This document shows positions 26,582-31,244 of a DNA stretch of 64,000 nt, in pieces (the stretch's first letter is position 1; each line of letters opens with the position of its first letter). The translations under genes and the position numbers were made by a program. The DNA is from Escherichia phage EP_H11. The stretch lies in the sequence record OP688485; one strand, 5' to 3'. Under the pieces are notes generated by a model. That model saw nothing but the letters and a program-made list of their open reading frames with translations, was not told where the DNA came from and did no database searches.

Positions 26582-28096
26582 ATGATCGTATCAAAGTCCT
26601 TGAATGAACTACACCGTCTTATTGATATGAAAGAAGCAACTTACACCACTCCGGTGCGCTTTTACTTCTCTGATGGTCCTAAAGAAACTACTATCGGTCG
26701 ACTGTTTATTTGGGAAATCAGCGGCTATCTTCCAGAGAAAGAAATAGATAAGAAGGAATCTGCGAAGATCGTCTCTTACATCAATAATAATTACACTCCG
26801 GAAGTGGCTGGTCGCCGACTGCATAAGTTGCAGCAGTTCGGATTTCATAAGGCTACCCAGTCTGGTCTGAGCTTATGTTACGACGACACTAAGTTTGACT
26901 TCGGTATAGACTTTCCAGCCATGACTCAGGAGCTCGGTAAGATGGAGTATGAGGATCGTCTGGCTGCTGCGGATAAAGTCATCAACGAATGTACTGATCG
27001 CTGGTTTAAAGAAGTAGACCGTCATAATCCTCTGTATGCGATGGGTGTATCTGGTGCTCGTGTATCTCCTCCACAGGTCCGTTCGATGGTGGTGGCTAAA
27101 GGTCTTCTGGTAGGTATGACTGGCAAGATCATGCCGATGCCGATCATGGAGAACTTAAGCTCTGGATTATCTCCCATCAACTACTTCAATACCTGCGGAC
27201 CTGCTCGTAAGGGTCTGGCTGGTAACTTCTTCCTGGTACCTGCGACTGGTTGGTTTGCTCGACAGCTGGTTAACTGCTCTCGCGAGCTGTCTATTGTGGA
27301 AGAGGATTGCGGAACTAAGGAAGTTATTACCTTACCCAAGAAATCAGCACTGTATCGATTCACTAGCGACCGAGTGATGGTTACTAAAGAGAATGTTGAT
27401 CAGTTAGCAGACGAAGAAGGTAATGTGAAAGTTCTTAGCCCTATTACTTGTGAATCGACTAAGGGTGGGGTATGTCAGCATTGCTGTGGTATGGATCCTG
27501 CTAAACCAGCTAACTTCTTCCCAATTAACTTCGGTATTGGAACGGCGTCGGCGCAGCATATCTCTGAACCATCTACTCAGGCTGGTCTCCGTGGTAAGCA
27601 TACATCTGGTTCGACTACTCTTAAGGAATTCGGTACTTCAGTAAGTAATACCTTAGCCGATATCCTGAAGACGGTAGGTGGCCGAGGTACTGCAGTAGCT
27701 CAAGTGTCTGAGTCTAAGTATAAGTGCATCACGGATCTTGCCCACGAAACTGGATCAGCAATTAAAGGTGCAGAGTTAGCTGCGATTCAGCTTAAGCACA
27801 TCTTCGACGACATCGGTATCGGTATCGCATCGATTCACCATGAGATCATTGCTCGCGGCTGTACTGATCTGGTTAAGATGAATAATGGACGAATCGGTGT
27901 TCGCAGCATGGGAGATAAGGGTGAGGTACTGGCGATTAAAGCCGATGCCATCCCTACGAAGCATCCTAGCTGGCTGAAGTCTATTGGTCATGGTAACGTT
28001 AAACGCAGGCTTACTGATGCAGTGCTTAATGGTGATGTTAGCTTCGGAACCCGTTCCGAGATGATCATTGCTGGGTTAAATCTGAATAACAAATAA
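26582..28096 (+). CDS. multisubunit RNA polymerase beta-prime subunit, C-terminal half
   Basis: NPLYAMGVSGARVSPPQVRSM..GLSPINYFNTCGPARKGLAGN..GWFARQLVNCSRELSIVEEDCGT collinear with E. coli RpoC ~720-820. Trigger-loop-like HISEPSTQAGLRGKHTSG. C-terminal RRLTDAVLNG..MIIAG. Confidence 0.9.
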   Translation: MIVSKSLNELHRLIDMKEATYTTPVRFYFSDGPKETTIGRLFIWEISGYLPEKEIDKKESAKIVSYINNNYTPEVAGRRLHKLQQFGFHKATQSGLSLCYDDTKFDFGIDFPAMTQELGKMEYEDRLAAADKVINECTDRWFKEVDRHNPLYAMGVSGARVSPPQVRSMVVAKGLLVGMTGKIMPMPIMENLSSGLSPINYFNTCGPARKGLAGNFFLVPATGWFARQLVNCSRELSIVEEDCGTKEVITLPKKSALYRFTSDRVMVTKENVDQLADEEGNVKVLSPITCESTKGGVCQHCCGMDPAKPANFFPINFGIGTASAQHISEPSTQAGLRGKHTSGSTTLKEFGTSVSNTLADILKTVGGRGTAVAQVSESKYKCITDLAHETGSAIKGAELAAIQLKHIFDDIGIGIASIHHEIIARGCTDLVKMNNGRIGVRSMGDKGEVLAIKADAIPTKHPSWLKSIGHGNVKRRLTDAVLNGDVSFGTRSEMIIAGLNLNNK

Positions 28097-28104
28097 CTTG
28101 GGAG

Positions 28105-28797
28105 ATGGATGTGGGCAAGATCTATAATCCCCTGCTGATCCATACAGTAGGGGACAGTATATGCTACGAGGGACGTAAGTTCATAGGTACAGATGCCCTA
28201 CAACCAGTCTGGTATAATGGGATAGAGTCGCATGTGGATGACATAGACGACTTTTGGACTACCGATTGGTACCCTATCAGAAACTTCACTATCGCAGGAA
28301 GTAAGGCGGTACTCCGGAGAAATCTGGCATGTGAAGGATTCGGTGGTATGCAGCTGTACTATCTGTTGGCTACTCACAAAACCTATATTAATGAAAAATA
28401 TCGACATAATCTTATTGACGATATTAGTAATCGGCGGTATTACGGAATGGGCAATGGTATTCTACGGATTGTGGAAGAACTATTGAAGTCATTTCCTATT
28501 ATCATAACAGATGATCGCTTCATAATCAAGGAACTAGGGGATATGGTGGTCCCTATAGAAGACGTGATTACTTGCGGACGTAGAGATCGTAAGCTGTACT
28601 CTAAGGAAACCGTAAGAGACTATATCAATAAGCAGCGCATCCAGGATCTGTCTTCCCAAGGTCGGGTAATGACTCTGCTATTGTCTAATGTAGAATTATC
28701 CAGCGCAATTATCTATGAGACCCAGGATAAGCGTAACTGCGCATGTACGATGATCAACTATCGTCGTTCCCGCAAGATGCCTCCTAACCAAAAATAA
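28105..28797 (+). CDS. hypothetical protein (230 aa) between the two beta-prime gene halves
   Basis: ORF behind GGGAG. Codon usage richer in ATA/AGG/AGA/GGA than the flanking RNAP genes. No motif recognised. Confidence 0.6.
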   Translation: MDVGKIYNPLLIHTVGDSICYEGRKFIGTDALQPVWYNGIESHVDDIDDFWTTDWYPIRNFTIAGSKAVLRRNLACEGFGGMQLYYLLATHKTYINEKYRHNLIDDISNRRYYGMGNGILRIVEELLKSFPIIITDDRFIIKELGDMVVPIEDVITCGRRDRKLYSKETVRDYINKQRIQDLSSQGRVMTLLLSNVELSSAIIYETQDKRNCACTMINYRRSRKMPPNQK

Positions 28798-29660: not shown

Positions 29661-29675
29661 TTAGGAGAAATTAAA

Positions 29676-31244
29676 ATGAAATTAAAGTTATCTATTGCAA
29701 CTGATGATGTAATCCGTGCCGAGTCCAGTGGTGAAGTAACCAGCATGGGGATGTATAATCTTAAGTTCCATGATCCTAAGCCATTCACTGGTGGGTTATT
29801 CTGTCAGCGCATCTTCGGACCTCTGGTAACTGGTAAGTGCGAGTGCGGTGACCAACTGGTCATGGGAGCACCTCCGTGCCGTGTGTGCGGTATGGTAGCT
29901 ATGCATCGTGAATCTCGTCGCCGTCGTATGGGACACATCGAGACGATCGTTCCTTATGTGAATCCATTAGCTATTAAACGTATGGCTGCGTTATTCGGAT
30001 TCCCTGAACGAGAGTTCGGTCAGTTCCTTATCGGTAAGTACCGCTTCGTAGTTCAGGAGGCTGGTCTGGCAGCTAAGATGGTTGGGGAAGATCGGGAGCG
30101 GGTTCGTGAGTCTAATGCAGCTCTTCCTGAATATGAAGACCGTGAGAAGTATGCGATGTTTTACTCTAACACTATCCCAGTCCAGGATAGCACGAAGCGC
30201 CTCGCGGTAGTTATGATCAAGATCCGTCGCATGTCTGAGCACGACTCCTCGGAGCTTGGGCTACTGAGTCTTATCCAGGCATTGGTAGCTAATCGTGCTG
30301 ATATGAAAGCCTATATCGAAGAGTGCGAAGATCCTACTGTAGTGAATAGCGGTTACACCGAGTTCAGCGATTTCTATAACACTACGGTGCTGGTGAATCC
30401 TCCGAGCTATCGTGATGTGGGGATCAGTAATGGTGTAATGTCCTATCATCCGACTAACTTACTGTACCTCCGAATTCTTCGCCATGCGATTCGTATTAGA
30501 AGTATTCGTGACACTGCCGAAGCTAGTGAAGCATTACTGTCTCTGATTCCTCGTGAAGCTATCGTAATGCAGAAGATGGTTAACGGATTAATCCTGGAAG
30601 GGACTAAGGACTATCGTGGTAACTTAATTAAGCCAATGATCAATAACCTTAAAGGTAAGGGTGGCCGCATCCGTGGTAATCTGTTAGGTAAGCGTGTTGA
30701 TTACTCAGGCCGTTCTGTAGTTACTTCGGCTCCGCATCTTCCTCTGGATACTCTTGGAGTACCATTCAAGATGATGTACGAATTACTTCAGCCAGACATC
30801 CTAGGCGAGCTAGAGAACTTATATGGTGGCCCTACTAACGAAGGGTACAACATGTACGACATCAGCAACAAAGTCCAGCGTATGTATAAGAATAAGTCCC
30901 GAGTAGCTCTGGAAGTATGCTGGAGGCTGTGCGAGAATGCTACGGTGTTCATGAACCGTGCGCCATCCCTACACCGTTACTCAGTATGGGGATTTAAGGT
31001 CAGACCTCATATGGGTAAGGAGATTCAGGTTCCTCCTATGGCTATGGGTGGTCAGAATATGGACGTGGATGGTGATACAGCAGCAATTCACCGTGTACTG
31101 ACTGATCGTGCTTGCTGGGAAGTGCGTAGCCTGATGATGGTTAACCAGAACATCAACAGCTCTATTGACTTCGATAGCCCAGTAGTCAAACCAAGCCATG
31201 AAATGGTAGTTGGCTTATTCCAGGCTACTACGGAGGAAGAATAA
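29676..31244 (+). CDS. multisubunit RNA polymerase beta-prime subunit, N-terminal half (catalytic)
   Basis: GGLFCQRIFGP..CECG zinc/clamp region, RRRRMGHIE, NRAPSLHRYS, catalytic NMDVDGD (cf. NADFDGD), SHEMVVGLF; collinear with E. coli RpoC 1-~505. Confidence 0.92.
   Translation: MKLKLSIATDDVIRAESSGEVTSMGMYNLKFHDPKPFTGGLFCQRIFGPLVTGKCECGDQLVMGAPPCRVCGMVAMHRESRRRRMGHIETIVPYVNPLAIKRMAALFGFPEREFGQFLIGKYRFVVQEAGLAAKMVGEDRERVRESNAALPEYEDREKYAMFYSNTIPVQDSTKRLAVVMIKIRRMSEHDSSELGLLSLIQALVANRADMKAYIEECEDPTVVNSGYTEFSDFYNTTVLVNPPSYRDVGISNGVMSYHPTNLLYLRILRHAIRIRSIRDTAEASEALLSLIPREAIVMQKMVNGLILEGTKDYRGNLIKPMINNLKGKGGRIRGNLLGKRVDYSGRSVVTSAPHLPLDTLGVPFKMMYELLQPDILGELENLYGGPTNEGYNMYDISNKVQRMYKNKSRVALEVCWRLCENATVFMNRAPSLHRYSVWGFKVRPHMGKEIQVPPMAMGGQNMDVDGDTAAIHRVLTDRACWEVRSLMMVNQNINSSIDFDSPVVKPSHEMVVGLFQATTEEE

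Follow-up and report, generated by a model that had tools for sequence, protein, structure and literature searches.

A phage clade with a conserved, compact RNA polymerase beta-prime subunit and no recognisable beta subunit

In Escherichia phage EP_H11 (sequence record OP688485), a stretch of 64,000 nucleotides analysed here as a whole (below, the window) holds two open reading frames (ORFs) that resemble the two parts of the beta-prime subunit of multisubunit RNA polymerases. The gene of the C-terminal part (C-half) lies upstream of the gene of the N-terminal part (N-half). Such a locus raises the question of whether the two ORFs together specify one working beta-prime and, if they do, with which beta subunit it would act. 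A preceding inspection of the letters alone (the sequence-only reading) had described a beta-prime divided into two complementary, non-overlapping genes, with the C-half gene 1.6 kb upstream of the N-half gene and two ORFs and a promoter-like element in between. Pfam searches, tblastn and multiple alignment bear out the division, and the coordinates proved exact: the intervening gap is 1,579 nt long and holds two ORFs and one 61-nt repeat element (Table 1).

The N-half matches the Pfam domains RNA_pol_Rpb1_1 (5.5e-14) and Rpb1_2 (3.4e-23). The C-half matches Rpb1_5 (2.9e-12, above the cut-off) as well as Rpb1_3 (2.4e-6) and Rpb1_4 (9.8e-5), the latter two just below their curated cut-offs. Both halves also match phrog_25354 (1,216 positions), the N-half at positions 9-508 and the C-half at positions 615-974. 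The N-half corresponds to residues 20-514 of E. coli RpoC (3e-51 in tblastn and, for E. coli beta-prime, 4e-51 in a phmmer search of the PDB). The C-half corresponds to RpoC residues 570-990 (tblastn 5e-28), with the alignment continuing to the C-terminal region H motif, and in the PDB it matches Francisella beta-prime at 4e-28. For each half, the best 60 PDB matches consist entirely of beta-prime chains from bacteria and gamma/beta-prime chains from cyanobacteria.

Relatives were sought by tblastn of both halves against 50,697 phage records, which yielded a small clade. The window is collinear with Escherichia phage vB_EcoM_IME392 (MH719082, 116,460 bp; below, IME392), to which it is 92-96% identical, and it spans both ends of MH719082, so that, set against the window, this record can be read as a closed circle. 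The swapped gene order is seen in the window, in IME392 and in the Logan metagenomic contig L012 (~52% amino-acid identity in beta-prime). Ralstonia phage RP13 and Acinetobacter phage Ab1-TPeters resemble the window in the junction between the halves (~515 in E. coli numbering), in halves that are 35-50% identical to those of the window, in the same PolA-type replication module and in homologues of the 230- and 218-aa genes of Table 1 linked to beta-prime. They differ from the window in arrangement: in RP13 the N-half precedes the C-half with five ORFs between them (ORF144 / ORF150), and in Ab1-TPeters the halves lie ~40 kb apart and an intron is present. Beta-prime is a single polypeptide, neither split nor permuted, in the Rhizobium phage RHph_TM30 group (1,127 aa, 10 near-identical records; Kleczkowskaviridae) and in Vibrio phage Va2 (1,192 aa), which share with the window a compact beta-prime near PolA that matches phrog_25354.

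In a multiple alignment of the concatenated halves with the unsplit relatives, the junction falls after residue ~515 of E. coli RpoC, equivalent to residue 474 of RHph_TM30 and residue 508 of Va2; the end of the N-half had previously been put at about RpoC 505, which is slightly off. The halves are complementary at this point, with zero overlap and zero missing segment. The Rpb1 domains follow each other in canonical order (1 and 2 in the N-half, 3, 4 and 5 in the C-half), and the concatenate is collinear with E. coli RpoC, RHph_TM30 and Va2. Every motif that had been quoted for the two halves is present: the CxC...CxxC zinc site, NRAPSLHRYS, NMDVDGD (residues 461-467 of the N-half), GARVSPPQVRSM, ARKGLAGN, EEDCGT and the trigger loop, in which an Arg and a His, the counterparts of E. 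coli R933 and H936, are retained. Also kept are the clamp helices, switch 2 (GKRVDYSGRS), region F, the bridge helix, the second zinc site (DCG...C..C..C) and a C-terminal ENVIVGRLIP-like motif. The catalytic loop is, as had been noted, a variant: NMDVDGD is found in the window and in IME392 with all three Asp residues kept, against the canonical NADFDGD in L012, RP13, Ab1-TPeters, RHph_TM30 and Va2 and NLDYDGD in phage YerA41. Missing from this beta-prime, in comparison with the E. coli subunit, are SI3 (947-1130), a section of the jaw (1149-1181), a few loops and the C-terminal tail, which is not conserved. The marked compactness of the C-half (504 aa), which the sequence-only reading had rightly stressed, is due to the missing SI3, jaw part and tail.

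Both halves are intact. With IME392 as reference and a synonymous divergence of ~0.3, the ratio of non-synonymous to synonymous differences (pN/pS) comes to 0.017 in the C-half and 0.032 in the N-half; such low values mean strong purifying selection, so that neither half is a pseudogene, and decay, which had been named as a possible objection, does not apply. Split inteins or trans-splicing at the junction were considered and ruled out, as there are no extra residues and the concatenate is shorter across the junction than the unsplit homologues. Nothing suggests joining, and the halves are therefore probably two polypeptides. Misassembly as a cause of the swapped order was likewise ruled out, since the arrangement occurs in three independent assemblies (window, IME392 and L012). 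These comparisons establish that the two ORFs are halves of a single compact RNA polymerase beta-prime of the bacterial type, predicted to be functional and cut after the double-psi beta-barrel at about RpoC 515.

The second part of the question concerns beta. The earlier statement that the window has no beta gene holds in tblastn, motif and profile searches. With E. coli RpoB, YerA41 beta (924 aa) and Arash gp206 as tblastn queries, there are zero matches at E <= 10 in the window or in the whole IME392 genome, while the same searches retrieve the beta-prime halves at 1e-20 to 1e-51. The signature motifs of beta (GDK...GNKG and the GEME type) are absent from all six frames by regular-expression search. 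Every stop-free frame of at least 40 codons was scanned by hmmsearch --max with profiles built from 3 and from 26 beta sequences. Only noise was obtained, with best E-values of 0.69 and 3.4 for the window and IME392, 1.2 in the complete circular Ab1-TPeters genome and 0.29 in the complete Va2 genome. As a positive control, YerA41 beta matches the beta profile with 100% probability. Three complete genomes of the clade (IME392, Ab1-TPeters and Va2) are thus devoid of a detectable beta. In a database-wide tblastn, YerA41 beta matched 43 records, none of them from the clade of the window, IME392, RP13, RHph_TM30, Va2 and Ab1-TPeters; when E. coli RpoB was used instead, the organism tally contained none of the Rhizobium phages. 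The beta subunits of AR9, PBS1 and phiR1-37 are retrieved by the same beta queries, so a jumbo-phage beta would be detectable. Among the 80 best beta-prime-like loci of IMG/VR, beta lies within 10 kb of beta-prime or is fused to it in 59, and the remainder are mostly giant-virus bins.

A homologous beta that has merely diverged beyond detection is not to be expected, because the phage beta-prime keeps 28-32% identity to E. coli RpoC and because in YerA41 the two subunits diverge about equally from E. coli (beta-prime 26%, beta 27.5% identity). The beta-less state is old and stable, as it is common to deeply diverged phages of Escherichia, Acinetobacter and Vibrio and, by database search, of Ralstonia and Rhizobium. 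A phage clade with a conserved beta-prime and no recognisable beta is the main new point of this work. No sigma, alpha or omega gene was found among the ~46 ORFs scanned with Pfam, some of them also with PHROGs. It had been proposed to look elsewhere in the genome for beta halves and for a second beta-prime set. Neither was found in complete IME392; the window and IME392 have one N-half and one C-half each. The GenBank record MH719082 gives the N-half (CDS 16457-18025) as 'putative DNA-directed RNA polymerase beta subunit', a label that could wrongly suggest a phage beta, and the C-half as 'beta-prime subunit'. In the annotation of Ab1-TPeters both beta-prime halves are hypothetical proteins. 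No paper was found in the literature on the polymerase of IME392, RP13, RHph_TM30 or Va2, nor on a beta-prime of a phage without beta.

Since no genome of the clade encodes a detectable beta while every catalytic element of beta-prime is conserved, host beta would be the most likely partner. The arrangement that we consider most likely, with middling confidence, is that the halves would assemble on host alpha2-beta, probably with host omega, into a hybrid polymerase that would transcribe the modified phage DNA. A catalytically intact beta-prime requires a second double-psi barrel and, a hidden homologous beta being unexpected, host beta would be its most economical source. In such an assembly the beta-prime halves would bind the host alpha2-beta sub-assembly together with omega, and the phage accessory proteins may act as assembly or promoter-specificity factors, roles which are guesses. 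The hybrid would read thymidine-hypermodified DNA from phage elements (the AAAGGCTGTT and AAAGCCCGTT classes) unlike sigma-70 promoters, and the DNA channel, with SI3, the C-terminal tail and part of the jaw gone, may be adapted to the bulky modified DNA. The genes for modification and nucleotide metabolism include a 5-hmdU DNA kinase (Pfam 4.4e-35), a thymidylate-synthase homologue and glycosyltransferase-like genes, with dCTP deaminase and dUTPase also present according to the IME392 annotation. Severinov and colleagues reportedly showed in 1996 that E. coli beta-prime, artificially split at the cyanobacterial site, assembles into an active enzyme, and Lill and colleagues are said to have reconstituted interspecies hybrid cores in 1975. 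IME392 is listed among the phages whose PolA resembles that of the thymidine-hypermodified YerA41 (PMC12686479, a 2025 paper).

It is possible, though somewhat more doubtful, that the whole clade, with hypermodified thymidine and with hosts in Escherichia, Acinetobacter, Vibrio, Ralstonia and Rhizobium, exchanges no more than the beta-prime of the host polymerase for a compact version of its own, which in the IME392 lineage is split and encoded in permuted order. This phage beta-prime would then join host beta, alpha and omega as well as two or three accessory proteins specific to the phage. To our knowledge, phages rely either on a complete polymerase of their own (T7-like phages, N4, phiKZ/AR9, YerA41) or on the host enzyme, which they leave intact and re-programme (T4, lambda, Xp10). 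Neither scheme accommodates a beta-prime that is conserved and catalytically intact and has no beta; paired with host beta, it would represent a third strategy, the exchange of a core subunit. These would then be the first viruses known to swap a catalytic core subunit of a cellular polymerase, for the transcription of bulky modified DNA. Such a pairing would also provide a natural minimal beta-prime of ~1,030 aa, in two modules, that works with E. coli subunits and could be of use in studies of polymerase assembly and possibly in transcribing heavily modified DNA.

Several points weigh against pairing with host beta. It is an argument from absence, and for RP13 and the Rhizobium phages the lack of beta was read from the database-wide tblastn. 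The bacterial core enzyme is very stable; in infected cells a hybrid could form only from freshly synthesised host beta or through active remodelling. The PDB scores of the halves are similar for gamma-proteobacterial, alpha-proteobacterial and Bacillus enzymes, with differences too small for interpretation, and show no host-specific similarity. Finally, a non-homologous partner with a second double-psi barrel may exist: the structure models of two accessory proteins are of low confidence (pLDDT 43 and 51), and the three accessory proteins total ~930 aa, close to the 924 aa of YerA41 beta.

Such a partner is the essence of the best surviving alternative, by which the phage polymerase would be autonomous: one or more cryptic phage proteins, with the 483-, 230- and 218-aa proteins as candidates, would supply the second double-psi barrel and no host subunit would take part. 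YonO, crAss-like gp62 and QDE-1-type enzymes serve as the comparison. We regard this as rather unlikely. All three accessory families keep their synteny with beta-prime throughout the clade, but in profile-profile comparison each reaches a probability of <= 0.4% against the 26-sequence beta profile, and no frame contains GDK...GNKG or GEME-type beta motifs. While they carry no known domain, and while their combined length would suit a beta, the two families modelled are mostly helical and not barrel-rich, at the low confidence already given. An extreme divergence of a homologous partner co-evolving with beta-prime is at odds with the 28-32% identity that beta-prime itself keeps with its bacterial counterparts. 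In favour of an autonomous enzyme, jumbo-phage polymerases function without alpha and omega (PMC7598289).

A non-catalytic role of the halves, as decoys or regulators that sequester host sigma-70, NusG, DksA or omega or that poison core assembly, seems quite improbable. The lack of an encoded beta and the presence of the sigma-binding clamp-helix region would suit it. However, a decoy needs none of the Asp triad, switch 2, bridge helix and trigger-loop Arg and His, all of which are conserved among relatives that are ~28-35% identical. Most or all zinc-site Cys residues are conserved among them too (Va2 is without some Cys of the second zinc site), and selection is strong across the full length of both halves. 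The group I intron inside the catalytic motif of Ab1-TPeters points the same way, as group I introns typically target functionally constrained sites. It is hardly credible that the locus is a decaying remnant of a beta plus beta-prime polymerase after the loss of beta, or an assembly error behind the swapped order: the related YerA41, Carin-5, Arash and Vibrio D69 carry beta beside beta-prime, which fits beta loss in principle, but both ORFs and all motifs are intact at a pN/pS of 0.02-0.03, the three assemblies with the same arrangement include one at ~52% identity, and the beta-less state is shared by deeply diverged members.

Among the phages with a known polymerase, YerA41 has several traits in common with the window: its genome is < 200 kb, its thymidine is hypermodified, its PolA is related, and its beta-prime is of the bacterial type and split. 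It differs in having its own beta, in the contiguous genes for beta-prime N, beta-prime C and beta in normal order and in the split site at E. coli ~622; its beta-prime is ~24% identical to the window halves, no closer than that of E. coli. The YerA41 polymerase subunits were detected in virions by LC-MS/MS (PMC7354516). In YerA41, Carin-5, Arash and Vibrio D69 beta adjoins beta-prime or is fused with it, unlike in the window. The 1,525-aa protein gp206 of Salmonella phage Arash (L009 5215-9792) is a fusion of beta with beta-prime N, while beta-prime C is encoded 5 kb further downstream. Vibrio phages D181 and D148 have their beta gene in several pieces, with an annotated homing endonuclease.

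The phiKZ- and AR9-like polymerases, against which the sequence-only reading had set the locus, fail as a frame for it. In both cases the cut in beta-prime comes after the double-psi barrel and the resulting polypeptides have genes of their own, which in jumbo phages can be scattered (PMC7598289). In contrast to the window, these phages have split beta subunits, two complete enzyme sets and genomes of > 200 kb, against 116 kb here. AR9-like subunits match the window halves partially (29-44% of the query) at 5e-6 and 4e-10, against 3e-51 and 5e-28 for bacterial beta-prime, and no phiKZ-like phage is among the matches listed for either half. The split sites differ as well. According to a review, the jumbo-phage beta-prime split coincides with the cyanobacterial site (PMC7598289, the source used here for the jumbo-phage site); by our own alignments the cyanobacterial gamma ends at ~616 and YerA41 is split at ~622, about 100 residues beyond the junction in the window. 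Cyanobacterial and plastid rpoC1 (gamma) and rpoC2 likewise represent a natural beta-prime split, and their two polypeptides assemble with beta, alpha and omega. Unlike the genes of the window, they are adjacent, in N-then-C order, and have a beta in the same genome.

T4 adds factors to the intact host core or modifies it (gp55, gp33, AsiA, MotA, Alt/Mod). As a comparison of mechanism only, a hybrid enzyme would share with T4-type takeover the redirection of the host core, by means of phage-encoded proteins, to modified phage DNA and phage-specific promoters, but here a catalytic core subunit itself would be replaced, for which we know of no precedent.

The various arrangements in the clade allow some conclusions on the history of the split. 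By pairwise scores the window, L012 and RP13 group together, with RHph_TM30 and Va2 outside. Since the junction is the same in RP13 and L012, and since beta-prime is whole in RHph_TM30 and Va2, which are more distant, a single split is likely, and the comparison suggests one split event in the clade followed by rearrangements. The gene order in the window, IME392 and L012 is PolA, long accessory gene, small ORFs, beta-prime C, the 220-230-aa gene, the 217-218-aa gene, beta-prime N and RNase H, and in contig L098 it is PolA, long accessory gene, short accessory gene and beta-prime N. In the IME392 lineage the block of beta-prime C and the 230-aa gene sits between the 483-aa and 218-aa accessory genes, which elsewhere precede beta-prime, and for this reason the C-half is encoded and transcribed before the N-half. 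The inverted order had been singled out as one of the striking features of the locus. The order itself stands, but it is one of several in the clade and, the halves being separate polypeptides, probably of little functional weight; its main value is as a marker of rearrangement history.

Mobile elements have been active around the beta-prime genes, as judged from two cases. In Ab1-TPeters (PP763253 ~64135-64446; L006 10293-10604) a group I intron (Rfam RF00028, 66 bits, E 1.4e-16) splits the N-half exactly between NAD and FDGD, with the result that this half is annotated as a truncated 438-aa hypothetical protein and small ORFs. In the window, PolA and the 483-aa gene are separated by a 303-aa ORF with a weak GIY-YIG match (22571-23482) and a class I element ahead of it. 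The ~1-kb segment around it (22492-23546) has no counterpart in IME392 and so looks like a free-standing homing-endonuclease insertion. The idea that introns seed such splits is cited in the jumbo-phage review (PMC7598289), and the mobile elements found here are compatible with it. The clade records a stepwise break-up of a polymerase gene, from unsplit to split to scattered or permuted, with an intron inside the catalytic motif of one member.

The clade as proposed here is characterised by a compact beta-prime that is encoded close to a YerA41-type PolA and preceded by a long and a short accessory gene. The long accessory gene has a homologue in Ab1-TPeters (3e-38), 1.5 kb past beta-prime C, and others directly after PolA in RHph_TM30 (P0005), L012 and L098. 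This family has 36 representatives in a library of 1.84 billion proteins and no sequence match in Pfam, PHROGs or the PDB. The AF2 model of the 483-aa protein, made from a shallow alignment, is mostly helical at a pLDDT of 51, and a Foldseek search of the PDB with this low-confidence model gave nothing below E = 1. The 483-aa ORF was considered as a beta fragment on account of a weak Pfam Rpb2_3 hit (E 0.089) at ETPDGSAMGM and was rejected, the motif being unconserved in homologues and hhalign giving 0.1% against beta.

In L012 a 220-aa homologue of the 230-aa protein is encoded immediately behind beta-prime C. RP13 ORF151, which likewise follows the beta-prime C of its phage without a gene in between, aligns distantly with the 230-aa protein (17% identity, shared motifs); its profile score is not independent, as ORF151 belongs to the query alignment. 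The 230-aa profile also matches Ab1-TPeters 103154-103828 at 9e-7. The protein has no Pfam or PHROG match and reaches 0.4% in hhalign against beta. Its FGGMQLYY, considered as a counterpart of the beta motif FGEMEVWAL, was discarded as unconserved in L012 and RP13.

The short accessory family lies immediately upstream of beta-prime N in the window, L012, Ab1-TPeters (3e-8) and L098, and its homologue in RP13, ORF152, is two genes after beta-prime C. The 218-aa gene has a pN/pS of 0.019 and its product has no Pfam or PHROG match; the AF2 model, again from a shallow alignment, is helical at a pLDDT of 43. Its start at 29004 was taken from the IME392 annotation, and the in-frame ATG at 28905 falls where IME392 has an insertion: between the class II element and this gene, IME392 (19084-18793) is ~290 nt longer than the window (28908-28916). 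Weaker accessory-family matches occur upstream of beta-prime in RHph_TM30 and Va2 (E 1e-7 to 5e-3). As the long and short profiles match the same proteins there, paralogy of the two families was considered, but hhalign between them gives a probability of 0.7%. The RNase H gene, in the same operon as the N-half, occupies the same position in L012.

Two families of conserved intergenic elements in the window share the core AAAGSCYGTT, which occurs at 20 sites, all on the + (coding) strand, against 0.36 expected by chance. Class I elements (AAAGGCTGTT, 16 copies at 3008-55422) stand ahead of genes of replication and nucleotide metabolism. The class II core (AAAGCCCGTT) has four copies and a fifth with one mismatch. 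Class II elements form the 61-nt repeat family D5, with five copies starting at 2224, 24980, 28804, 33019 and 36517. When these are aligned, a conserved core, TAAAGCCCGTTCTTTTGGGTGGGGCG, is followed by a variable hairpin, a Shine-Dalgarno sequence and ATG. An inverted repeat TTCAAA...TTTGAA lies upstream in the class II copies, and the downstream hairpin shows compensatory changes. Neither class could be taken for sigma-70 promoters: there is no convincing -35/-10 pair, and sigma-70-like sites number 14, against 22.4 in shuffled sequence. A search of Rfam with the window from 22 to 34 kb gave no known RNA family.

As had been stated, a class II element heads the operon of each half (copies 24980 and 28804), and both copies are conserved in IME392. 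The independent regulation that had been derived from this is plausible but unproven, as no terminator-like site was found between the C-half and N-half operons and L012 keeps an element, a diverged class II copy at the same position, ahead of the N-half operon only. A terminator-like hairpin is found just upstream of the copy at 24980 (24932-24949). In the strong terminator-like hairpin that closes the N-half operon, the class I motif AAAGGCTGTT lies within the ascending arm of the stem, and one sequence might serve here as both promoter-like element and terminator. The next class II element starts at 33019.

Table 1. Positions in the window of the beta-prime genes, linked genes and regulatory elements
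Feature	Position	Strand	Description
Long accessory gene	23475-24926	+	483 aa; follows the PolA gene directly; linkage to beta-prime throughout the clade
Class II promoter-like element, copy 2 of 5	24980-25040	+	Heads operon containing the C-half
Beta-prime C-terminal half	26582-28096	+	504 aa; region F, bridge helix, second zinc site, trigger loop, region H
Conserved ORF	28105-28797	+	230 aa; starts 8 nt past the C-half stop
Class II promoter-like element, copy 3 of 5	28804-28864	+	Between the halves; heads operon containing the N-half
Short accessory gene	29004-29660	+	218 aa (251 aa if start at 28905); ends 15 nt before the N-half
Beta-prime N-terminal half	29676-31244	+	522 aa; zinc site 1, clamp helices, switch 2, double-psi beta-barrel with NMDVDGD
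RNase H gene	31244-31765	+	Pfam RNase_H 4.1e-9, phrog_531 3.5e-18; start shares one base with the N-half stop codon
Terminator-like hairpin	32908-32944	+	17-bp stem and T run; closes the N-half operon

Elsewhere in the window, a full-length BCCT betaine/carnitine/choline transporter (8174-9556; Pfam 1.6e-91) is encoded, in a lytic phage. Its neighbours are genes for a PIG-L deacetylase, a methyltransferase, glycosyltransferase-like proteins and the 5-hmdU DNA kinase, and the transporter might import a precursor for thymidine hypermodification. A PolX-like polymerase with thumb and HhH domains is encoded beside a 647-aa ORF (37272-40053), a putative DNA ligase in the IME392 annotation. A NADAR-domain protein (7.4e-27) is encoded at 53010-53669, and in the N-half operon the product of 32054-32560 matches phrog_755, annotated as RNA ligase (5.3e-9). 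The PolX-like, ligase, NADAR and phrog_755 genes have putative functions in repair or at RNA ends.

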